A stretch of DNA of 64,000 bases from contig JAYWIR010000014.1 of NCBI GenBank assembly GCA_036172245.1, positions 1,922,001 to 1,986,000 of the forward strand, given 5' to 3'. How positions within the stretch are numbered: position 1 is the stretch's first letter; the number at the start of each line of letters is the position of its first letter. Shown in pieces: positions 17,652 to 36,821 of this stretch. This DNA is from Raillietiella orientalis. Lineage: Eukaryota. Under the pieces are notes generated by a model, which was not told where the DNA came from, did no database searches, and saw only the letters and a list, made by a program, of their open reading frames with translations. The position numbers were made by a program, and so were the translations under genes.

Positions 17652-19240
17652 AAAATTGGTACTGTTGCAATGTAGTTTTATTGAAACTGACTGATTTTTT
17701 TAAGACGTGTGTATTCTGTTTTAGATAAGTTGAATTTTATTATCGAGTATGCCATCAGTTAGCATAGATAAAAACAGTTGCATATTGCAGATGTGTTCTT
17801 TTTATAGTTTTGAAGTAGTATATGGAAAATGAAGTATATGGAATGTATATGGAAAATATAAAGAGATACTAAAACTGAGATAAGTGTTAGGTGCTGTCAA
17901 ACTATACTCACATTCTGTTTTTATTTCCTTGAGCACATATGTTTGTGTGTGCTTGTATTATTTTGAGCAATGTAAGTTAGGAAAAATTCCAAGTTCCTTA
18001 TTTCTGGTTTATTGTATGTTTCTTTTCAATGTTGCATGTTTTTCGATATTTCTGAGTCTTAATTTTTCAAAGTGTTCGTATCTCCAATCTCCATCCTTGT
18101 GTGTGGATAAACCAAGTTTCTGAAGGAATGAGTTCCCTTGAGTTTGTAATTCACAGTGTGTGCATGCCAGGTAGTTATGTTTCATATGTGAATTTATGTG
18201 ATATACAAGTGGACTTTCCTAAAACCTCACTCCTTAATAAGATGTTAAAGGTCCCAGTGGAATAGAACTATGTTTTTGACGTGTAGGTATAAGAAAGCAG
18301 TATAAATATCAGGCAGCATGATTTGAAAATGCAGACCTTGTCATCATCAAAAAAGACTAAAGTGTTTCAGTCTCCATTTGTGAAAGGATTCACTTCTGTA
18401 ATAAAGCATTACAAGTTTTTGCATGTTATAAGATTTTTTGTTCCCATACCTTATATAGGAAGTTTACTGAAATGTACATGTACATGTTACATGTTATCCT
18501 CATTAAGTATGATCTGTACTCTAAGCACCAATATGAGGTTCAGATATAGAAACATTGCTGTGGTACCAGTATTCATGAGATGTGTAGTGTCTTTTCCTAA
18601 AGCTTGGTGAAAGATGTCTTTTTCTGTTGTTTCCGAAATAGCATTGTTAATGTTTTAGCAGCAAAGAGTGGAATAAAACTAATGTGTTTAATTCCAAATA
18701 CATTGTAATATACTTATTTAAATGCAGAGAGGATTCATATTTTCAAAAAATCTTATGTAAACTACGAAGTATAAGCTTTCCAATAATAGTGGGACACTTA
18801 TATTATAAGTACAGCACCATACCAAGTTTAAAACTGGTATGCAGCATGCTTATCAGTTTTTCTGAAATACAACCGTAGTATGAAAAAATAACATACATAC
18901 CTTTATCTTGTTTCCTATCTTTAAGATTGCCCTGTTAAAGGTAATTAAGTGTGATAGAAATTACCAACAACACGTTAGTGATCTCAGAAAAAGTTAAAAA
19001 AAAAAAATCCCAGCATTTCAAAACATGTTCGGAAAAAGAAAAAGTAAACGAAGTATCAGTAAACGTTAACTAGACCGAGAAGTGAAAACTTGACATTGAA
19101 CTACACGACAAATGGGTGTTTTGGGTATGAAGCACGCACCTTAAGCTTCAAACTTGGAGCATTCGCAACTGAGATAAATGTGGAAGCGGGGAAATTTTGA
19201 ATCCAAATACATTTAATGTTGTTCAATTGAGACATTTTAC

Positions 19241-19288
19241 ATACTTACCTGGCTTCGAGGTCTTAATTGTGTTCACGACGACGGTTAA
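19241..19288 (+). ncRNA. U1 snRNA 5' fragment (retrocopied head of Tx1 copy A)
   Basis: Starts ATACTTACCTGGC (U1 5' end). Then stem TTAATTGT (19263-70) / ACGGTTAA (19281-88) closing the 10-nt loop GTTCACGACG, close to the U1-70K loop GATCACGAAG. No stem-loop II or Sm site. Confidence 0.85.
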
Positions 19289-19339
19289 TTAGTTAATTGT
19301 GATCGTGTGTGCCCGGAGGGGGAAAGTGTCTAGAAGAAA

Positions 19340-21253
19340 GTGAGTGTGGACAAGAGAGTGCTGCCTAGGATCAGCTCCTACAACTACAGAAGAAGCGCCG
19401 AGGAGATCACGGCGGAAGACCTGCAAACTTCCTCAGCGGCAGTACCAGCCGCCAGGATGCAGGCAACAGGAAGAGGAACGAGGAGGCCGACGTCCCCCAT
19501 AGAAGAAATGGAGGTACAGTACGGCAGTAGTGAGGCGGCGGCGAGGCCGAGGATCGCGCCCGCGGCGGCAGTTGTTGCGCCGGCGGCGGCGATGCCAAGG
19601 GTCGCGCCCGCGGCGGCGACGATGGAGGTCGCGCCCGCGGCGGCGACGGTGGAGGTCGTGCCCGCGGCACTGACACCGAGGATCGCGCCCGCGGCGGCAA
19701 TGGTCGCGCCTGCGGCGGCGATGCCGAGGTTCCCGCCCGCGGCGGCGGTGGCGGCGGCGGCAACGTCGAGGGTTGCGCCCGCGGCGGCGTCCCAGGCGGT
19801 ACCCGCGGGCGTCCACGCGGTGCAAGGAGCGCAAGATGCGACGCCATCTTGCTCGGCTGCGGCGACACAGCCATTCTCTTACGCGTCGGTGGCGGCGGGA
19901 CAGGTTAGTGTCCACCCACCAAGGAAATTTGGCAAGCCCCTAAGGGGGAAAGTAGAAAGGGTGGACCGGCCGGTTGTTCAGCTAGGCTGGGAGGTCAAGC
20001 CCATAATGTTTAGAACGGGGCTGATCAAATTCAGTAATATCAGGGAAGTATATCTGTCCCTAGATAAAACTGACATAGATTTCGATCGCATTCAGGCGAT
20101 CATTCCCAATAATTCCGGGTTCACGGTCTTCACAGACTGTGAGAACATCAAGGAGAGGTTGATCCAGAAAGGGATCAATATCCAAGGCAGGATGGTCTGT
20201 GGTGTCGGAGAGATGCCGTACACGACCGTCTACTTGAGCGGTAATTCGATCTACACACCACAACTAACGGTGTGGAAATACCTGGAACAGTTCGAGAACT
20301 TCTCTGGGAAAATCTTTTCTGGCGACATAATCGCCAAGATAAAATTGAATGAAGGTGCGCAGATTCCCGGGATAGCTGTCATAGACGAACCATCCCACTG
20401 CGTGAATGTGCGCTACCGGCAACAACCGGTATTTTGCACCGGATGCAAGCAGTTTGGCCACAGGGCCGGCGCTTGCCCAACATCGAGATGCTACCGCTGC
20501 GGCAAGATTGGACACCAAGTCCGAAACTGCCCGCAGCCGGAGGTTTGTTCCTTCTGCAAGAAGCACGGACACGCTAAATGGAGCTGTCCTGAATTCGCTA
20601 ATTGCAGAAGGATCCGTGGACTCTCTCCCGTGAGAGAGAGGAATTTGAGGGAGGCAGAACAGCCTCAAAAGTTGGCAGGAAGGACGAAGAAGACTAAGGA
20701 AGTCGTCCCGGTATCGGCGGACGGCTTCATAGAAGTGGGAAAGAAGGGGAAGAGGAGGATGCTCGTCAAGGAGCAGGAAGCCTCTCTTACCCCAGAAGTA
20801 GCGGCGGAAGGCGAAAAAATGGAGACAGTCCAGGAAGACGAGAAAGTAGTTGAAGAAGCCACTCCGGTGTCGCGGGAGGCCCTGCAGTCCACCGAGGAGT
20901 TGATAAAACTCTCAGAAGAAGTGATGGAGGTGCAAAGCGGACCCCAGCAGGTGCAAATCCTGCAGAAGATCTGCGATGCACAGGAGACTGTGAACCAGGT
21001 GGTGGAGGTAGCCGAGCGAGAGAAGGTGGAGGAACAGCTTCTCGAAGTAAAGGCGAACTTCTGTGCGAAGGTGGCGATAGAGGCGCTACCCAGAAAGGTC
21101 ATCGCGCGAGCAGAACACTCTACGGAGGAGGCCGAATTTACCGACCTCACCGGGACGGAGAGTGACGCTGCAAGCGATAAACCCGCTCCTTCTTCAGTGT
21201 CTGGAAGAGCACGCTCTCCCAGACAGAAGAAGCTCAGGAAGGCCAAAAAGTAG
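19340..21253 (+). CDS. ORF1 (gag-like) of copy A
   Basis: 637-codon open frame: Ala-rich 27-bp repeats (~19545-19790), CTGCKQFGHRAGAC, CYRCGKIGHQVRNC, CSFCKKHGHAKWSC, acidic tail. First ATG is at 19457. Confidence 0.9.
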   Translation: MSVDKRVLPRISSYNYRRSAEEITAEDLQTSSAAVPAARMQATGRGTRRPTSPIEEMEVQYGSSEAAARPRIAPAAAVVAPAAAMPRVAPAAATMEVAPAAATVEVVPAALTPRIAPAAAMVAPAAAMPRFPPAAAVAAAATSRVAPAAASQAVPAGVHAVQGAQDATPSCSAAATQPFSYASVAAGQVSVHPPRKFGKPLRGKVERVDRPVVQLGWEVKPIMFRTGLIKFSNIREVYLSLDKTDIDFDRIQAIIPNNSGFTVFTDCENIKERLIQKGINIQGRMVCGVGEMPYTTVYLSGNSIYTPQLTVWKYLEQFENFSGKIFSGDIIAKIKLNEGAQIPGIAVIDEPSHCVNVRYRQQPVFCTGCKQFGHRAGACPTSRCYRCGKIGHQVRNCPQPEVCSFCKKHGHAKWSCPEFANCRRIRGLSPVRERNLREAEQPQKLAGRTKKTKEVVPVSADGFIEVGKKGKRRMLVKEQEASLTPEVAAEGEKMETVQEDEKVVEEATPVSREALQSTEELIKLSEEVMEVQSGPQQVQILQKICDAQETVNQVVEVAEREKVEEQLLEVKANFCAKVAIEALPRKVIARAEHSTEEAEFTDLTGTESDAASDKPAPSSVSGRARSPRQKKLRKAKK

Positions 21254-21265
21254 GTCTTCCCCTTT

Positions 21266-24200
21266 ATGGCCTCATTCCTATCGACCGCCAGGAGGCTGAA
21301 CATCGCCTCCTGGAACGTAAACGGTTTAATCGACCAGACGAAAAGAAAGAGAATTGTGCGGACCATCGCACAACAGGACATCGTCTGCCTGCAGGAGACC
21401 CACAAGTTGGGACTCGAGATCAGTCAACGGATGGAACGACGTTTCAATGGGCAGATGTTCGCCAGCGAGGGAAAACGGAACACGCAGGGTGTGGCGGTCC
21501 TCATCAAGAACCACCTGGCCCCCACTATTCTGGAAGTGTTTTGTCCCTTGGCTGGACGCATCATCGGAGTGCGACTGTCCTGGTCCGCTACTGTTCACCT
21601 CATTTTGGTGAGCGTGTACGGACCGCACAGGCTAAAACATCGTTGCGCGGAGTCGCCGCACGCAGCACTTCGGGAAAAGGTCGCGCCCAAGGACGTCGTG
21701 ATCGTCGCTGGCGATCTAAACATCCTGGACGTCATCACACATTCCCAGGGCGCCAGAGGAAGGTCAGCGTATCGGCGGCTATCCGACGAGTTCGGATTGT
21801 TGTGGCGAACAGCAAGCCACAAGCCGATCGATCACGTCCTCCACAGCACGGAATTAGGGAATCGCATTCTGGGTTTTCGCGACATACCCACCACCCTGTC
21901 CGATCACCCGCTAGTGCGTTTTTCCCTAAGGACGGAGAATACTCGGCGAAAGCAAGGCACCAGGGCGGCGCTCATCAGCATGCCCGCCTGGTTCGAAACA
22001 CATCCTGGACATCAGGAGGTCCTGGAGGCGATTCTAAAGGCGACAACAATCAGAAGAGTCGCCGACTGGGACAGCCTGAAACACAGGATACACTTGTTTG
22101 CGAATATGCAGTTCGGCGATAGACGATTGAGGCAGGAAGCGTACCGGGAGCTGAACATCAAAGATCGCTCACTCTCCAAGTACTTCGAGGAGTACGAGAG
22201 ACGGTACGTCTTCCATAATGTAAAAGGGGAAGTCGGCGTGCTGGAGAAGAGGAATCTGGCAACAGACATCTTCTGCATCCAGTGCGCCGATCAAAGTCGG
22301 CACACGTCTGAAGATATCGTAGATGCCTTCGAAAGGCATTATACGGAACATTTTCGATGCGAACACCTGTGTTCGGCTACACAAAACACCTTCCTAGGCT
22401 ATCTGGAAAAGAAGCTTGACGACCTCCAGCGGAAGAGACTGGAGGAGGATATTACCGAAGAAGAAGTGAAGACTGCGTTCGGTCAATTACGCAAGGACGT
22501 GGCGGCAGGCCCTGACGATGTTCCCATCTCTCATTATCAGAGATACCTGCACGCCTACCTGCGTTTATTCCACCAGCTGACCCTCTGCATCCGACAAGAA
22601 GGACGACTGCCGGAGTCCTTCTACGAGAGCAGGACGAGATTGTTGCCGAAAGGAGGCGACCTATCCAGGATAGCCAATCTCAATCCTTAACTCGGATGCC
22701 AAGTGGCTGGCAAAGATCTGAGCCAACCGCTTAGGCAAGGTTATGTCGAGGCTGATATCTCCTGTTCAGACGTGTGCGGTACCCGGACGCCACATGCTGG
22801 ACAATGTCAAGTGCGCGCAGACTATCGTGGGACTTAGCCCATACGTCGGTGAGAACCTGGTGCTTGCGTTCACAGACATGGAGAAAGCCTTCGACACCGT
22901 CGATCACGGGATGCTGCTCAAGATTATGGAAAAGCTGGGACTTCCAGAATACTTCAGCATCTTCGTGCAAATGATCCTCCGGAATCAACGCTTCCGGATA
23001 AAAATCAACGGATTGGAAACGGCAGTCATTCGGATGGAGCGAGGAGTTCGGCAGGGCGACTCGCTAAGTCCGATGCTGTTCGTTATCTACATGGAGGCGC
23101 TCTCTTCTTTCGTCGAGAAGAACGGACGTCTAAAAGGAGTGGAAATAGATGACCAGAAGCTCACCCATCTAGCCTACGCGGACGATCTCCTCTTCTTCAT
23201 AAGAGGAAAGAAGGATCAAGAAACGTTCCTGGACGTGGTGAGCCTTATGAAAGACGGATTGGGCTTGAAGATCAACGCCCAGAAGAGCCAGATTTTGCCC
23301 GTCGGAATACTAGATCTCTCCACACTCACGGGGAATGGATTCCGTATGGTAGATACGGCCAAGTACCTGGGAGTCTACATAGGCGACGACTCCGCGTCGA
23401 AGCTGCTGTGGACAGAAATCCTGGGGAAAACGGCCAATGAAGCAGCAAAATACACTCGAATGGACTTTGGGATGAAGCAAAGGGCCAACCTCTGGAACGG
23501 AATACTCCTTCCAAAGGTACTCTTTGGAGCGGCCTTCGCTAGAATGAACAAAGAAACCACGAGAGAAGTAGAGAAGCTGCAACGCAAAACACTGTGGGGC
23601 CACTATCGCCCAAGAGTCCGATTAAAACCCCTGTGTCGTCCCAGGGAAGAAGGCGGTTCCGGGATGAAGTCGCCTGCACATTCCATGGAAATCATGGATA
23701 CGCGACACCTCCTGGATATCGCTACTCACTGGGATGACTGGCCGTATGCGGCGCACAGGGCCTACGCGTTGTTGTTGAACAACTCGAAAGGCCTGATGAC
23801 TGCGCTGCTAGGCCGAACAGGGGAATGGAGAACCATCGACCCCACCTGGACAAGAAAACAAAGGCTAGTGCGAAAGCACAAGATCAAGATTGTGCCGAGA
23901 AGCAGGGAACTCTGGCAGGAGGAATCCATCCTGGTGATCCCGTGGATGCTTCCGGTCCATCCGGACACGAGAAGCTGGATCTACCGGCGGCCCAGAGTTA
24001 CCCTGCAACGAATCCAGGAGTGGAGAAGAGTAGGTTACCTACATCACACTCGTATACTTCGGTATATAGAGATGATGCTAAGTAGGTTCACCCATAAGAC
24101 CCGCGAGGTGTGGATCAACCACAACGATCTCGCGTGGCCTAGGGTAACCAAAATAAACCTTAGAAGATTTATTCAAGAAGACGACCCTGACATCAGTGCC

Positions 24201-24773
24201 CTCCAAGAAGCAGCCGATCGCTACGGGAGTCATCGAATCAACCTGTTAGCGATTGGAACCACGCTCTGGAGGAGTGACCTACCGCCGGACACGCAGGAGC
24301 ACCTCCTGATGTTTTATCATGGAGGAATCCAAAGCGGGTCCAGACTTCAGTACTTTACCGGAAGACCGGAAGATCGAGACTGCGTAGCATGTGGCGACAC
24401 CGACACGAGACTTCACGTCTTGACGTGTCCCACATTGCTACACGACTGGCTGATCCTGAAAAGAATCATAGGACCCAACAACGAGTCCGTAATGGAAATC
24501 ATCACTTAGATGTTCCAGGGAGATGGTAATGTTCCATGTTACAATCCCATGGTGAGGACGACCATTGCTGTCTTCATCACCGCCATACTTGCGCGGTGGT
24601 GGAAGATGAGGAAAGCCAGAAGAGCCGCACCTCCGATGGAGATCCTTCAAGGACTCATCAAGAAGGAGATAGGCATCAGGAATTGTGGAAGAATCCATGC
24701 CTGGACGTACCGATTCATCCTGAAGAGGATTGAAGACGACGCCCGGGACCAAACATCCGGAAACCCACCCTGA
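21266..24773 (+). pseudogene. ORF2 (APE endonuclease, reverse transcriptase, zinc finger) of copy A, disrupted
   Basis: SWNVNG, LQETH, GDLN, IDHV, SDH; DMEKAFD, GVRQGDSLSP, YADD, KYLG; CVACGDTDTRLHVLTC. Frameshifting deletion near 22680, TGA near 22719 and TAG at 24507-24509. Confidence 0.93.
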
Positions 24774-24904
24774 AAGCAGAACTTGTGAAACCCCAAAGAC
24801 TTCAAAGCGGTAATAAAGTGTCAATAGTATGAATGAGATTGTAGTATGAATGAGTTTAAAAATGAAAAATAAATTTACCCCACCCTTGTGGGACTTGAGG
24901 AAAA

Positions 24905-26212
24905 TCGCCCAAGCTTCCGGCTGAAACAACTGTGTCGTCCCAGGGAAGAAGGCGGCTCAGGGATGAAGTCGCTTGCACATTCCATGGAAATCATGGATAC
25001 GCGACACATCCTGGATATCGCTACTCACTGGGATGACTGGCCTTATGCGGCGCACAGGGCCTACGCTTTGTTGTTGAACAACTCGAAAGGCCTGATGACT
25101 GCGCTGCTAGGCCGAACAGGGGAATGGAGAACCATCGAGCCCACCTGGACTAGAAAACAAAGGCTAATGCGAAAGCACAAGATAAAAATCGTGCCTAAAA
25201 GTAGGGAACTCTGGCAGTAGGAGTCCATCCTGGTGATCCCATGGATGCTTCCGGTCCTCCAAGACACGAAAAGCTGGATCTACCAGCGGTCCAGAGTTAC
25301 CCTACAACGCATCCAGGAGTTCAGAAGAGGAGTATACCCACATCACACTCGTATACTTCGGTAGATAGAGATGATGGTGGGTAGGTTCACCCATATGACC
25401 CGCGAAGTGTGAATCAACCACGATGACCTCGCGTGGTTCAGGGTAACCAAGATGAACCTTCGAAGAATGATTAAGGATGAGGACCAAGACACCAGTGCCC
25501 TCCAAGAAGCCGCCGATCGCTACGGGAGTAACCGTTTTAACCTGTTGGCGATTGGCACGACACTCTGGAGGAGTGACCTCCCGCCGGACACTCTGGGCGA
25601 CCTCCTGATGTTCTATCATGGAGGAATCCAGACCGGGTCCAGGCTCAAGCATTTCACAGGAAGACGGGAAGATGAAGACTGCACGGCATGTGGAGACATG
25701 GATACGAGACTACACATCTCGCCGTGTCGCACTTTGCTACGCGACTGGCTGATCCTGAAAAGGATCATAGGACAAAACAACAAGTCTGTGAGGGAAATCC
25801 TCGCCGGGATGTTTCAGGGAGATGGTAATGTTCCCTGTTACAATCCCATGGTGAGGATGACCATTGCCCTCTTCATCACCGCCATACTTATGCGGTGGTG
25901 GAATATGAGGAAAGCCAGGAGAACCAGAACCCCCATGGAGATACTACAAGGACTCATCCTCAGGGAGATTGGTATCAGGAACTGTGGACGACTCCAAGCC
26001 TGGACGTACAGATTCATCCTGAAGAGGATTGAGGACGACGCCCGGGACCAAACGTGTGGAAACCCACCCTGAATGCAGAACTTTGAGTATCTTAACGGAC
26101 CTTCAAGTGAAGTGAAAGTGATAATATATTGTTTGAATGAAATTGTAGTATGAATGTTTAAAAAAAAAATTTGAAAAATAAATTCACCCCACCCCTTGTG
26201 GGACCTGGGGAA
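24905..26212 (+). mobile_element. 5'-truncated copy B of the same family, fused directly behind copy A
   Basis: Homologous to 23625-24904 with several stops; same terminal hairpin; followed by right TSD AATTGAGGCATTTTACATA (26213-26231). Confidence 0.93.
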
Positions 26213-26699
26213 AATTGAGGCATTTTACATAAAACACGCGGCTTTTGGGTAAGTATATTTGCATTGGTAATGAAAAATCAATGTAACTTTGAGTGGGAAG
26301 ACTACGTATTGTGAAACGGTTGTGGACGTGTGAGATGAGTGTTCAAAATGGTATGCTTACTCTAATGACATGGCATGCGTGCAGTCGTCCATTCGTCTAT
26401 CATAGTGTCCGCGTTTTGAATCCAAGAGTAACGCATTTGTTAGGAGAGGAGGCATTCTTCCGCACTCAAGTCTCCGTTGTCGGTTGCTCAGGTGTTACCA
26501 TGGATCATTTTTGAAAAGTTTTCCCTCTGATAATGCAACCCGTTTAACTGCACCAGATGTTTGATTTCATTCGATCTGCGGGATCATGTCAAAGGAATGA
26601 GGATTTTGTAGTCGAACCCAAGAAGTGACACGCTAACATTTTGATTCTTCTATTCGTGAGAAAACGGAACCCAAAGCATCGAATCCATCACACTTTGAA

Positions 26700-29900: not shown

Positions 29901-32614
29901 AGCTCTGTCTTCCCTAGTGGAGAAGAATGGTAGCCTCCCACCAATGACGTGGGGGCTCACCAGCGAAACTGCGGCAACTGTCAAAGCAAACTTCTTTTCC
30001 ATTATGTACTGGATACTCCCATCGTTGAATTCAAGAGGTTGAGCATAGCTGATGCTGGTTCAGCTATAACAGCTAGCCTTTTCAACTTATCTCTTATTTA
30101 ATATGCTACTTTCTAAGAGGAGCATAAGAAGAATGAAGGTTTAGTCAATGGGGGCAGTCTAGAGTATTCTGGGCTTGTAGTGCACTTTATAGTGCTTTGG
30201 TGCGTGCGGGAATCAGAAACTATTAAGGGCATGAGTAAATTTGAAGCAAACAAAATCAGCTGCCTTGGACACTGACTCCAAATGTAGCTTGCTCGGTACA
30301 AATCGTCTTGGGGATGTCGCCATCCTGAAAGATGGAGATTCACTTCATAAATAGTTCAGAAGTAAGACTTATATGAATTGGTGGTAATGAGAATTATTAG
30401 GGGAGTTTGCTTAATAAATGATAATCCGCGAGGAACTTACTTTTTTAGTGTTTGTATATTGTTGATTTGATTATTTAGAAGTGATTAATTTTCTTAATCG
30501 GTGATCAGAATCCAGTTACAGGTTATGAGGTGGCTAATGGAAATGATTCGTGGAACATTTGGAACATCCACCGTCCGAGTTGTTTTTTGTCGCATTTTGT
30601 TTTCTTTGAATAGATATTGCTTTCGAAATGCTGCTCTTATCTAGATCATGGATGAATTGTTAGCTATTATTGAAGATTTGAATAATTTCGTTCACACTTT
30701 AGCTAGTATTGAATATTTCAATGTGCAATCCATCAACACTCATCTTCAAGGAAAGAAAAAAATGCCGATCGGAGCAATTTGTTTTGCACGTAATGGTATT
30801 TTCATGGTTCATACAATGCGTTCTACAGTGCCTTATTTTTATTGCTCTATATTTTCCTGAAATTTGATAGGAGACATGCAAAGAATACGTCGACATTCAT
30901 TTTTTGACTTCCAGACTCAATGTTCCCCAAACTTGTTCCGATTTTGAATTCCTATTTGCTCTTAAGCAAAGCAGTATGCTGATTCTTTGCGCTGTCACTC
31001 TTTGCGTTGACATACAGTATCGTTGCAAATCAATGAAAATGACATTTTGTATCAATTTTTCCCGCGCTTAGAGAACACTGAAAACTGGTTCCGTAATAGT
31101 GTGAATGAAAAGTAGCAAGCATTAAGTCATAAGAAATCACATTTCGTGGTACCCATGAAGTCCTATCCAAAGTATTCAATTAACAGTAATGAATTTGTGT
31201 ACTTTACGATTTTCCCCAGGTCCCACAAGGGGTAGGGTGAATTTATTTATCATTCATACTACATAACATTCATTCAAACAACTTTCTGCTTTTGCACTTT
31301 TCACTTTCACTTAGGGAGTCACTGTAGGCTTGTCTGCACTGGGTTTGCACTTGGGAGGACTACGTATGGTTTGGGTTCGTGCCTGGACAATACTTCCTAT
31401 CCTGCGAAGGATGTATTTGTATGTCCAGGCTTGCACTTTACCGCAGTTCCTGATACCAATCTCCTTTTGGATGAGTCCTCTGAGGATCTCCATGGGAGAT
31501 ATGGCTGAGCTGGCGTTCTTCATCTTCCACAGGATAGCTGTCGATTCTCTCGCGGACGGGGGAGTCCTTGCATCGTACGCCAGTTAGCGTAATCTGGGCA
31601 GCTCCACCTCGCGTGTCCCCGTGCCTTACAAAAGGAACACACCTCCGGTTGTTGACAACTGCGTACTTGGTGTCCCTGCTTGCCGCAGCGGAAGCACCGA
31701 GAATGCGGACGAACACTGACCCTGTGGCCAAAATGTTTGCACCCTGTGCAGAATACCGGTTCTTGTTGTTATCGTACATGAACCTCCTGGGAGTCCCCAT
31801 CAATATGGACCAATTCCGGAATTTTCACCTCCTTTTGTAACTTCATTTTGGCGATTATATCGCCCGAAAAGATCTTACCGGAGTTCTGGGACTCCACATC
31901 CATGACTTCTCCATATTTGGACAAAAAGGTCCAAATGGCTTGCTTATTTGTGGTGGAGACACCACTCAAAAACACTGTCATGTAACATATCACCAATGCC
32001 ACGAACCAGTCTCCCTCGAAGATTGGTTCCCTTTTGTATAAGGGTTTCGGTCAATAATTCACTATCGGTGTATATAGTGAATCCTGTGGTACTTGGTATG
32101 ATGGCCTGTACGCGGTCGAAATCGACGTTCTCCTTGTACAAGGCCAAGTATACTTCCTTTATGTTGTTTATCCGGATTAATCTGGTCTTGAACGTGATGG
32201 GCTTCAAGTCCGGACCGAGCCGTAGGATCGGCTCATCCACGTTATCAATCTTCCCACTCTCGGGCTTCCCAAATTTGCGTTGCGGCTGGGCGTTGGAATT
32301 GCCCGAAACCAACGCCACATACGAGAATGGCCGCGTTTTCGCAGTCGTACAAGATGGCGCCGCTTCCTGCGAGCTCTCCGCCACGTGGGAGCTCGTATGC
32401 ATCGCCAGTGGCGCCGCTGCGGGCGTAACCAGTGACGCCGACGAACCTCGCACTCGCCGGGTGCTCCGCTTGCATCTTGGCAGTGCGCTGGTGAACCCTG
32501 CCGCCGTCGCTGTGGGACGCAAGTCCTCCACTGTGGTGCCGCTGCAGGTGGTGTAAGTCCTCTGCTGCACTGTCACTGGTGGATGGGCTCAGTCACCGTC
32601 TTTGCACTGATCGC

Positions 32615-32713
32615 TTGCCCGTTCGGGGCACAAAAATTGCCGCGGCAGCGGTAATGTATGTCTTGGCGGGGTATTCGTAAAGTTTTCAACTAGCAATAAT
32701 CGCAACTCCCTTT
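32615..32713 (-). ncRNA. U4 snRNA, 3' portion (head of copy C)
   Basis: Minus strand GCGATTATTGCTAGTTGAAAACTTTACGAATACCCCGCC...GGCAATTTTTG (Sm site), then terminal hairpin TGCCC-CGAAC-GGGCA; matches conserved metazoan U4 blocks. Confidence 0.9.
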
Positions 32714-35700
32714 TGCCCAAGTCCCACAAGGAGTGGGGTACATTTATTTTCTTTTAAATCTCATTCATTCTACAATCACATTCATACAACATACCAACAC
32801 TTTATCACTTTGAAGTCCTTAGGGGTATCACAAGTTCTGCTTTCAGGGTGGGTTTCCAGATGTTTGGTCCAGGTGTCGTCTTCAATCCTCTTCAGGATGA
32901 ATCGGTACGTCCAGGCATGGAGTCGTCCACAGTTCCTGATGCCGATTTCCTTCTTGATGAGTCCTTGCAGGATCTCCATCGGGGGTGCGGCTCTTCTGGC
33001 TTTCCTCATCTTCCACCACCGCGCAAGTATGGCGGTGATGAAGACAGCAATGGTCATCCTCACCATGGGATTGTAACAGGGAACATTACCATCTCCCTGG
33101 AACAACCCAGTGATGATTTCCATTACGGACTCGTTGTTGGGTCCTATGATTCTTTCCAGGATCAGCCAGTCGTGTAGCAATGTGGGAGACGTCAAGACGT
33201 GAAGTCTCGTATCGATGTCGCCACATGCCGTGCAGTCTTCATCTTCCCGTCTTCGCGTGAAATGCTTGAGCCTGGACCCTTTCTGAATTCCTCCATGATA
33301 AAACACCAGGAGGTTGTCCTGGGTGTCCGGCGGAAGGTCACTCCTCCAGAGCGTCGTGCCGATCGCTAACAGGTGATCCTGTCACTCCCGTAGCTATCGG
33401 CGGCTTCTTGGAGGGCACTGGTGTCTTGGTACTGGTCCTTGATAATCTTCCGGAGGTTCATCTTGGTTACCCTAGACCACGCGAAGTCGTTGTGGTTTAT
33501 CCACACTTCGCGGGTCTTATGGGTGAACCTACTTAGCATCATCTCTATATACCGAAGTATACGAGTGTGATGTAGGTAACCTACTCTTCTCCACTCCTGG
33601 ATTCGTTGCAGGGTAACTCTGGGCCGCCGGTAGATCCAGCTTCTCGTGTCCGGATGGACCGGAAGCATCCACGGGATCACCAGGATGGATTCCTCCTGCC
33701 AGAGTTCCCTGCTTCTCGGCACAATCTTGATCTTGTGCTTTCGCACTAGCCTTTGTTTTCTTGTCCAGGTGGGGTCGATGGTTCTCCATTCCCCTGTTCG
33801 GCCTAGCAGCGCAGTCATCAGGCCTTTCGAGTTGTTCAACAACAACGCGTAGGCCCTGTGCGCCGCATACGGCCAGTCATCCCAGTGAGTAGCGATATCC
33901 AGGAGGTGTCGCGAATCCATGATTTCCATGGAATGTGCAAGCGACTTCATCCCAGAACCTCCCTCTTCCCTGGGGCGACACAGGGGTTTTAACCTTACTC
34001 TTGGGCGATAATGCCCCCACATGTCTTCCTCTGCAGCTTTTCTACTTCCCTGGTGTTTTCTTTGTTCATCCTGGCGAAGGCCGCTCCGAAGAGCACCTTT
34101 GGAAGGAGTACTCCATTCCAGAGGTTGGCCTTTCGCTTCATGCCACAGTCCAATCGGGTGTACTTCGCTGCTTCTTTGGCCGTTTTCCCCAGGATTTCTG
34201 TCCACAGTAGCTTCGTCGCAGATTCGTCCCCGATGTAGACTCCCTGGTACTTGGCCGCGTCCACCGTTCGGGATCCTCTCTCCGTGAGAGCGGAGAGATC
34301 CAGGATTCCGACGGGCAAAAGCTGGCTCTTCTGGGCGTTGATCTTCAGGCCCAGTCCTTCTTCCATTAGCGCTTCCTTCACCACATTTAGGAACGCTTGC
34401 TGATCCCTCTCTCCCCTAATGAAGAAGAGGAGATCGTCTGCGTAAGCGAGGTGGGTGAGCTTCTGGCCGTCGATTTCCATGCCCCGTAGTCACCCGCTCT
34501 TCTCGATGAAAGAAGACAGCGCCTCCATGTAGATAACGAACAGCATGGGACTTAGCGATTTGCCCTGCCGAACTCCTCGTTCCATCCGAATGGCTGCTAT
34601 TTCTACTCTGTTGATCTTGATCCGGAAACGTTGATTCCGGTGGATCATTTCTACGAAGTTGCTGAAGTATTCTGGAAGTCCCAGCTTTTCCAGAATCTTC
34701 AGGAGCATCCCGTGATCGATGGTGTCGAAGGCTTTCTCCATGTCGGTGAACGCCAGCACTAGGTTCTCACCGATGAATCGGCTGAGTCCCACAGTGGCCT
34801 GAGCACACTTGACATTGTCCGACATGTGGCGTCCGGGTACCGCACACGTCTGAACAGGAGATATCAGCCTCGACATAACCTTGCCTAAGCGGTTGGCTCA
34901 GATCTTTGCCAGCCACTTGGCATCCGAGTTAAGGATTGAGATTGGCTATCCTGGATAGGTCGCCTCCTTTCGGCAACAATCTCGTCCTGCTCTCGTAGAA
35001 GGACTCCGGCAGTCGTCCTTCTTGTCGGATGCAGAGGGTCAGCTGGTGGAATAAACGCAGGTAGGCGTGCAGGTATCTCTGATAATGAGAGATGGGAACA
35101 TCGTCAGGGCCTGCCGCCACGTCCTTGCGTAATTGACCGAACGCAGTCTTCACCTCTTCTTCGGTAATATCCTCCTCCAGACTCTTACGCTGGAGCTCGC
35201 CAATCTTACTTTTCAGATGACTCGAGAAGGTATTCTGTATCGCCTGACACAGGTGGCATTGCAGATTTTCTGCAGGAGTTGCTCCTGCTGAGGTCCGCTC
35301 TGCGCCTCCTTCACTTCTTCAGACAGTTTCTCCGCCACTTCGGTGGTCTGCAGGGTCTCCTGCGACGCCGGGGTGTGTTCTGGCAACTTCGCCACCTCGC
35401 CTTCCTCCGCAACCTCCATCCTCTCGCCTTCCTCCGCAACCTCCATCCTCTCGCCTTCCTCCGCAACCTCCATCCTCTCGCCTTCCTCTGCCGCTACTTC
35501 CGGGGTAAGTGGAGTTTCCTGCTGCTTGACTAGCATGTTCCTCATCCCCTTCTCTCCTACCTCTACGAAACCGTCCGCCGAAACCGGAGTGGCCTCCTTC
35601 GCCTTCCTCTGCTTTATTACCTTCTGAGGTTTCACCACCTCGGTGAACGCCTTTTCCCGCACGGGGGACTGGCCACGCATAGTCCGGTAGTTGGCAAACT

Positions 35701-36296
35701 CCGGACAGCACCACTTCGCATGCCCTGGCTGCTTGCAAAACGAGCACATTTCGGGCATGTCGCAACTGCGCACCTGGTGTCCCTGCTTCCCACAGCGGAA
35801 GCAGCGAAACCTGGGGCAGGCGCCCAAACGATGTCCAAAATTTTTGCAACCTGTGCAGAACACAGGTTGTTGTCTATAGTTGATGGAGACCTCCTGTGAG
35901 TCACCGTCGATGTGCACGATCCCGGGATCTGTGCACCCTCTGCCATCTTTAGTTTGGCGATGACCTCGCCAGAAAAGATCTTCCCAGCTATGTTCTGGAA
36001 TGTCAGCTCCAGAACCTCCCCAAATTTGGACAAGTCCCACACAGTGAGTTTCGTAGTGGTGAGTCCCACGCCCCTCAGCAGGACGGTCGTGTACGGCATT
36101 TCGCCGATACCCGGGACCATCCTTCCCTGTATATTGATGCCCGTTTCAATTAGGGCCTCTCGCAGGGGATCCGAATAGATGGTGAACCCCGACGTACTAT
36201 GGGATTATCGCCTGAATTCTGTCAAAGTCTACATTTGTCTTGTAGAGAGACTAGTAGACTTCTCTAATGTTGTTGAACCGGATTAAGCCGGTTCAA
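32714..36296 (-). mobile_element. Copy D: 5'-truncated Tx1-like element lacking the endonuclease, inserted in the U4 sequence
   Basis: Perfect 20-bp TSD CAATAATCGCAACTCCCTTT at 32694-32713 and 36297-36316. Partial ORF1 with three CCHC knuckles and an EVAEEGERM 27-bp tandem repeat (~35395-35490), joined near 35250 to the RT part of ORF2. Confidence 0.95.
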
Positions 36297-36338
36297 CAAT
36301 AATCGCAACTCCCTTTCGTTCAGAGGCCGCGATACTGC
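36297..36338 (-). ncRNA. U4 snRNA, 5' stem-loop portion (first ~14 nt missing)
   Basis: Minus strand GCAGTATCGCGGCCTCTGAACGAAAGGGAGTTGCGATTATTG corresponds to U4 GCAGTATCGTAGCCAATGAGG...GAGGCGCGATTATTG; contiguous with 32615-32693 once copy D and one TSD are removed. Confidence 0.85.
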
Positions 36339-36821
36339 TCGTGTGCTTCACGATTCCGGCTTTTAGAAAGAAAGAAAGCACCCGCGCGATACGCTGCTAT
36401 TGTGACAGTGCTCAGGAAGGGATACCAAGCTCACACAGAGGAGGAATTAACTGTTTTGAAATATCAAAGATTACACTTGAAACTTAGTTTTCTTGATCCA
36501 TGGAACAAGAACTAAGCTTGACCTATTTGGAGAGTGCTTTAGACGCATTAGCATCTGTAGGTATTCAAACTGCATCTTTGCTATACATTCACTTTGCTGT
36601 ACCTGAATTCAGTTCTTAAATTCTAAATTTCTGTAATGCTTCAATTACCCACTAATTTTATCAACCAAAGAAATTTTTCTATGAGTTTTCAAAAATTTAA
36701 CAATACAAAATTTGGGATCAAGAAGCTCATGCATTTTTTCTCTCAATGATCTGAAATTAGCGTTTGCATGAACAGTTGATACGAAAATAAATTTTAGGAT
36801 CTATGATTTTTCTTGTGAAAT

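Follow-up and report, generated by a model that had tools for sequence, protein, structure and literature searches.

A full-length LINE joined by its tail to a truncated relative within a single target-site duplication in Raillietiella orientalis

Introduction

Chimeric retroelements formed by template switching of long interspersed nuclear elements (LINEs) have been described in Magnaporthe, with WEIRD, Mg-SINE and MGL as partners, and in mouse, with B2, U6 and L1 (Gogvadze et al., 2007, PMC2104539). LINE families of the Tx1-Mar type headed by U1 or U2 sequence have been reported together with SINEU from crocodilians (Kojima, 2015, PMC4494074), and tandem junctions from tail to internal sequence, in elements lacking long terminal repeats (non-LTR elements) of Drosophila, have been interpreted as double insertions (McGurk and Barbash, 10.1101/158386). 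Here we analyze a unit of about 7 kb, made of non-LTR retrotransposon sequence on the plus strand of Raillietiella orientalis contig JAYWIR010000014.1, in which a full-length LINE (copy A) with a U1-like 5′ end is followed directly by a truncated relative (copy B). All coordinates are positions in the 64,000-nt stretch of this contig that was analyzed (the window), and the unit spans positions 19225-26231.

The locus shares features with several of these systems. As in the template-switch chimeras described in PMC2104539, different transcripts share one orientation and are fused head to tail, the 3′ side is formed by a LINE 3′ end, and a single direct repeat surrounds the whole, being 14-16 bp long in those chimeras and 19 bp here. 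Unlike the chimeras presented there, however, both main partners of the unit are LINEs of related families; the upstream one is a full-length copy, and its exact 3′ tail forms the joint. In the accounts of L1 and SVA 3′ transduction (PMC9311842, PMC13009371) an element travels with downstream source sequence that offers a usable 3′ end, within one target-site duplication (TSD); the piece carried here would be the 3′ part of another LINE, which would supply a specific priming tail. The R2 tandem insertions and U6 fusions of PMC11371274 also join the 3′ end of one copy to a full-length or truncated copy and include small-RNA sequence at the 5′ side; R2 as used in that work has a restriction-like endonuclease and only one open reading frame (ORF) and was supplied with identical templates, whereas the present unit belongs to an L1/Tx1-like LINE with an apurinic/apyrimidinic (AP) endonuclease, and its partners are 85% alike. 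With the Tx1-Mar families of PMC4494074 it has in common the L1/Tx1 grouping and a U1-derived 5′ end, which in those families moves with the element into non-U1 sites; in contrast to the heads described there, the head found here is short and diverged. Finally, a double insertion as proposed in 10.1101/158386 predicts a TSD copy at the joint, and the joint between A and B has none.

The locus is a clear case of an already known retrotransposition accident, either a LINE chimera or a transduction. Composite LINE insertions reveal how retrotransposons shuffle and recombine sequence, and they show a possible start of tandem LINE arrays, a seed of satellite DNA. The unit presented here provides a clean and datable example: one TSD surrounds both a full-length element and the truncated relative to which its exact tail is joined. 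If such joints prove unique and frequent genome-wide, this family would offer a natural setting in which to study template jumping in vivo; joints that trace to nested source loci would represent ordinary transduction.

Results and Discussion

Copies A and B lie within one target-site duplication

The unit is bounded by one 19-bp TSD. Its left copy (AATTGAGACATTTTACATA, 19225-19243, + strand) and its right copy (AATTGAGGCATTTTACATA, 26213-26231, + strand) were compared as direct repeats and proved identical at 18 of 19 positions, a match that was reached in none of 2000 shuffles in which both junction neighbourhoods were shuffled. A duplication of this length around the whole 7-kb unit had been claimed in the original prediction, and the shuffle test confirmed it. 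The flanks are single-copy in the window, where no second copy of them was found, so that it contains no paralogous empty site.

Copy A, which is full-length, extends on the + strand from 19241 or 19244, depending on whether three bases shared with the TSD are counted, to 24904. It is followed by copy B (24904-26214, + strand), a 5′-truncated relative which the A/B alignment identifies as the homologue of A 23605-24905. The 3′ ends of the family were aligned. Five of them are present in the window, namely those of A, of B, of a further copy, C, at 32711 (- strand), of a unit referred to as G at 31210 (- strand), and of a tail-only copy at 5834 (- strand), and they align through AATAAA...CCCAC..TTGTGGGA....GAAAA. 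The end of A matches the four other copies base for base up to ...GGGAC(T/C)TG(A/G)GGAAAA, which identifies its last base as the terminus of the family. The tail at the joint has four A's, as in the other four copies, and resembles a normal primed junction. Directly 3′ of this terminus stands TCGCCCAAG, the homologue of A from 23606 on, so that A ends exactly in its 3′ tail and is continued by B from a position within ORF2. Base 24904 (A) suits both the tail of A and B's homologue of A 23605, which leaves a 1-nt overlap at the joint.

No TSD copy was found between A and B, and the B-internal sequence begins immediately after A's tail. In the window comparison, no B-like 5′ sequence was present upstream of the joint or elsewhere on the + strand. 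The 3′-end alignment and the A/B homology therefore agree with the earlier claims that the exact terminus of A is fused to an internal ORF2 site of a diverged B and that the 5′ part of B does not lie upstream. Since there is one significant TSD and no TSD copy at the joint, the data support a single insertion event that brought in A and B together. The original prediction had proposed three joined segments in this one insertion; A and B were indeed carried together, but the U1-like sequence is doubtful as a separate segment, being diverged past nt 13. As routes it had named serial template jumps and the transduction of a pre-existing tandem, which correspond to the two single-event routes discussed below.

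A local tandem duplication of the last 1.3 kb of one element would give the same order of sequences, and an assembly error at 24904 could also be considered. We regard this pair of explanations as highly improbable. A and B differ by 14-15%, whereas the two TSD copies differ at 1 of 19 positions and ORF1 of A (598 codons) is open, which leaves practically no room for a duplication in place. Furthermore, B is nearer to copy C than to A in the segment 24105-24404, and the right breakpoint of such a duplication would have had to hit the last base of the element exactly. As for misassembly, a misjoin would be expected within shared sequence and not between a tail and an unrelated internal position.

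Tails and target sites of the LINE family

The tail-only copy (about 42 bp, 5834-5875, - strand) lies in a TSD matching at 14 of 15 positions (TTGACAGTGCGATAC / TTGAAAGTGCGATAC; 0 of 5000 shuffles) and shows ordinary target-primed insertion by the family. All four TSDs of the family that could be measured in the window are 15-19 bp long. A target pattern was drawn from only two TSD-bounded targets, GCCGGAA|TCG (unit G) and GCCGGCA|TTG (tail-only copy). The A homologue of the joint, GCCACTA|TCG, matches this two-site pattern at 7 of 10 positions, and 86 of 5652 positions in A (1.5%) score equally. Of the four TSD-bounded 3′ junctions that the window contains, three have T-Y-G directly after the tail.

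These sites bear on a further explanation, in which B would have inserted first with the 19-bp TSD and A would have arrived later, exactly at the border between the left TSD copy and B, with no duplication of its own. B has more lesions than A, which agrees with such an order, the border (...ACATA|TCG) contains the A|TCG core found at other junctions, and the first three bases of A (ATA) overlap the TSD as in microhomology joining. However, a normal second hit at the same target should leave a third TSD copy between the elements or duplicate the first bases of B upstream of A, and neither is present. Because all four family TSDs measure 15-19 bp, a duplication-free hit exactly at the first base of B is unlikely; of the 10 positions in the two-site target pattern the border fits only 4, and there is little prior probability that an insertion would strike precisely this base pair. 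Two successive insertions in place are consequently considered very unlikely.

Related copies were also sought outside the window. One public run (X1, with a share of 0.08) was compared in the form of short Logan contigs and yielded, at 85% likeness, 157 pieces from related copies. No contig bridging 24904 was found among the 8 of 165 pieces and 6 of 86 loose ends listed from this run; the loose ends listed (6 of 86) have other flanks after the tail, and one clear flank among them shows T-Y-G directly after it. A metagenome scan for the 3′ motif gave 120 loci, of which none is a relative, and blastn returned only chance matches of 21-37 nt.

The CCCAC/GTGGG pairing in the tail folded no better than shuffled sequences (z of -0.6 to -1.1), and it is kept here as a conserved motif only. 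Alignment to Rfam U4 places roughly the terminal 20 bases of the LINE tail (CTTGTGGGACTTGGGCAAAA; 32711-32733, - strand, and the other tails) on U4 positions 1-20, and the tail may mimic the 5′ end of U4.

Coding capacity of copy A and divergence among copies A, B and C

ORF1 of copy A (19457-21253, + strand) is open over 598 aa from its ATG. It encodes three knuckles of the CCHC type (Pfam zf-CCHC, E 1.5e-5), legible in the translation as three CX2CX4HX4C motifs, and a region of Ala/Pro-rich repeats. The N-terminal part of ORF1 contains seven imperfect spaced repeats of 21-48 nt (19535-19795, + strand) that encode Ala/Pro-rich units; within this repeat region, related contigs from run X1 lack 68 and 126 bases. 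The first part of ORF2 (21266-22690, + strand), which encodes an AP-type endonuclease (Pfam Exo_endo_phos, E 1.4e-16), is terminated by a frame break; the second part (22743-24773, + strand) encodes the reverse transcriptase and a C-terminal region (Pfam RVT_1, E 1.4e-24). ORF2 is broken twice, by a frame change near 22672-22743, where A has an 11-nt gap relative to related contigs, and by a premature TAG at 24507-24509. The 3′ untranslated region (UTR; 24774-24904, + strand), as delimited by the alignment of five 3′ ends, contains AATAAA, the conserved CCCAC...GTGGG motif and the GAAAA tail.

A protein search returned 89 matches, the best being 30% identical; many of them have the zinc-binding domain PF13966 and one is named Transposon TX1. 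These database relatives of A are AP-endonuclease/reverse transcriptase proteins, all at most 30% identical, and no close family member is among them. The element is accordingly labelled L1/Tx1-like, a provisional label that reflects domain content and distant relatives.

Copy B is 85.4% identical to A over 1314 alignment columns. It consists of an ORF2 remnant (24906-26072, + strand) with premature stops at 25218, 25362 and 25410, followed by the 3′ UTR and the GAAAA tail. Within the 389 codons compared in both copies, premature stops number three in B and one in A, and private non-synonymous codons 42 in B against 13 in A. Overall, three coding lesions were counted in 1.17 kb of B compared to two in 5.3 kb of A (one-sided binomial, about 0.04). 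B thus looks older than A, and it was probably dead before the insertion event, as would be expected for an old copy in which A had landed.

Block-wise comparison showed that the similarity among A, B and C forms a mosaic. A and C are 100% identical over 331 bp (22466-22796, + strand, versus 35150-34820, - strand), a block that contains the shared frame-breaking 11-nt gap, and again over 406 bp (23701-24106, + strand, versus about 33913-33508, - strand), whereas the blocks beside these are only 77-87% alike. The identical blocks reflect either recent gene conversion between inverted copies 7.8 kb apart or recombinant source lineages. Dating of A versus B by branch lengths and dN/dS was dropped as unreliable given this mosaic, and the lesion counts alone were retained. 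Because of the shared frame-breaking gap, copy A may have been non-autonomous and perhaps did not encode its own enzyme, which weakens any argument from cis-preference.

Read-through from a nested source or template jumping

For the single event we tentatively favour, at somewhat short of an even chance, the insertion of one composite RNA that was read through from a copy of A nested in an older B. At the source locus, ordinary endonuclease-primed insertion would have placed a full-length, U1-headed A inside ORF2 of an older, dead B, both pointing the same way. A transcript begun at the 5′ end of A would then have continued through A's AATAAA and tail and ended at the 3′ end of B, 1.3 kb downstream. 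There the reverse transcriptase could have primed, since the 3′ motif and GAAAA tail on which the family's enzyme relies are also present at the end of B, and target-primed reverse transcription would have copied the entire A+B RNA into the new site, giving a single 19-bp duplication. In this sequence of steps, we infer the source locus, the read-through and the assignment of the U1 head to A. In favour of this route are the single significant TSD with none at the joint, the standard four A's of the tail there, the likeness of the joint to the two-site target pattern, the T-Y-G that follows most tails, and the heavier damage in B. A nested source is not far-fetched, as LINEs of the L1/Tx1-like group cover about one fifth of the window, and read-through beyond the element's own end is described as common in L1 (PMC9311842, PMC13009371).

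Several observations weigh against such a read-through. The target pattern that the joint resembles comes from two sites, and its GCC part is missing from the two remaining genuine sites of the window; the C homologue of the joint site scores 6 of 10. The mosaic of A, B and C leaves the age comparison rough. The 11-nt gap that A and C share inside their 100% identical 331-bp block means that A may have been without an enzyme of its own. Two of the four TSD-bounded insertions in the window are composite, which is many if each needs a nested source and a read-through. No source locus was seen in the 64 kb analyzed.

A template jump, which we consider a real possibility of somewhat lower standing, would be expected to leave this structure too: a single TSD, and a joint of tail to internal sequence at which 1 nt overlaps. 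Target-primed reverse transcription would have begun with the final 1.3 kb of a B-type RNA, after which the nascent cDNA would have primed on the 3′ tail of a separate A RNA and been extended to its 5′ end; the U1 head would be either part of A or the product of one further jump. R2 proteins are reported to proceed in vitro from a cDNA to further 3′ UTR RNAs, and R2 in cells to yield "tandem insertion" junctions and U6 fusions (PMC11371274), while tripartite chimeras within one TSD are documented in PMC2104539. The window itself provides another composite of two LINEs, F-C, for which two separate insertions are impossible because its F part has no 3′ end and which lies in a 17-bp TSD without a mismatch; composites thereby make up two of the four TSD-bounded inserts in the window. 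It also contains an internally deleted, U4-headed copy, G. The A/B/C mosaic is also what recombination among LINE RNAs would give, but DNA gene conversion explains it equally well. A jump would moreover have used the RNA of a dead copy (three stops) as its first template, and the jump point would match a family-target-like sequence by chance, as 1.5% of positions do. Had the enzyme jumped end to end onto an RNA with a poly(A) tail, additional A's would often be expected, yet the tail at the joint has the standard four.

A broader form of this idea is that the family's reverse transcriptase habitually re-primes from the end of the nascent cDNA onto the tail of a second LINE RNA within one insertion event. 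Composites of LINE with LINE, head to tail, would then arise in single events, in the present case from B, then full-length A and then perhaps U1. We regard such a habit as rather doubtful. If true, it could be the origin of LINE arrays in the genome, and it would be a natural in vivo counterpart of serial jumping, known so far mainly from R2 in vitro and in engineered cells.

The U1-like head of copy A

The 5′ end of copy A (19241-19290, + strand) resembles U1 small nuclear RNA. Positions 19241-19253 match the Rfam U1 consensus from its 5′ terminus on without a difference (13/13); the three bases at their start (ATA) also belong to the TSD. A diverged part resembling stem-loop I follows and reaches about model nt 46. 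The head gave no match to Rfam U1 at the gathering score (69.5). A permissive Rfam search found U1 with 13.5 bits (E 0.35), and a search on 53 bases with 15.4 bits (E 0.013) over model positions 1-46. Judged from these alignments, U1-derived sequence is genuine at the 5′ terminus of A, with an exact 13-nt match and a weak, diverged one beyond nt 13. A 6-bp stem, AAUUGU/ACGGUU, with two G-U pairs is kept at 19262-19283 (+ strand) despite the sequence divergence, and its hairpin loop resembles the loop of U1 stem-loop I while differing from the consensus.

No other copies of the 5′ region of A were found within the window. The head is most likely an inherited part of A's lineage rather than a third jump in the insertion event, since functional U1 copied anew at the time of insertion should be preserved no worse than the remainder of A, which does not hold for the head, and since U1-headed Tx1 LINE families have already been published (PMC4494074).

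A second composite and other features of the window

The composite F-C (32711-36296, - strand) lies about 6 kb from the A/B unit. It consists of an ORF1 fragment, F (36296-35256), fused to C (35273-32711), which comprises the 3′ part of ORF2 and the tail. F belongs to another family (67% to A) and C is A-like (90% to A), so that the F/C joint runs from an internal position of one family to an internal position of the other. A perfect 17-bp TSD encloses the composite (17/17; 36313-36297 and 32710-32694; 0 of 5000 shuffles), and the lack of a 3′ end of its own in F means that F-C must have moved as one piece.

This TSD consists of U4 sequence (U4 nt 47-66, approximately), as F-C is nested in the U4 head of unit G (31196-36355, - strand), its older host. 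G is a U4-headed, internally deleted LINE in a TSD matching at 14 of 17 positions (36355-36339 and 31212-31196; 0 of 5000 shuffles). Its head runs from about nt 13 of U4 to the U4 3′ end (34.1 bits, E 8.1e-5) and is followed directly by the LINE, in which ORF1 is joined to the final 64 codons of ORF2. An interpretation of 36355-31196 as one six-part chain of jumps was rejected, because the inner perfect 17-bp TSD reveals a nested insertion.

A fragment of eukaryotic large-subunit ribosomal RNA was also detected at 6595-7417 (- strand; 605.7 bits, model positions 665-1455 of 3401). It sits in a GC-rich block (about 6000-9700) and does not adjoin the LINE tail at 5875.

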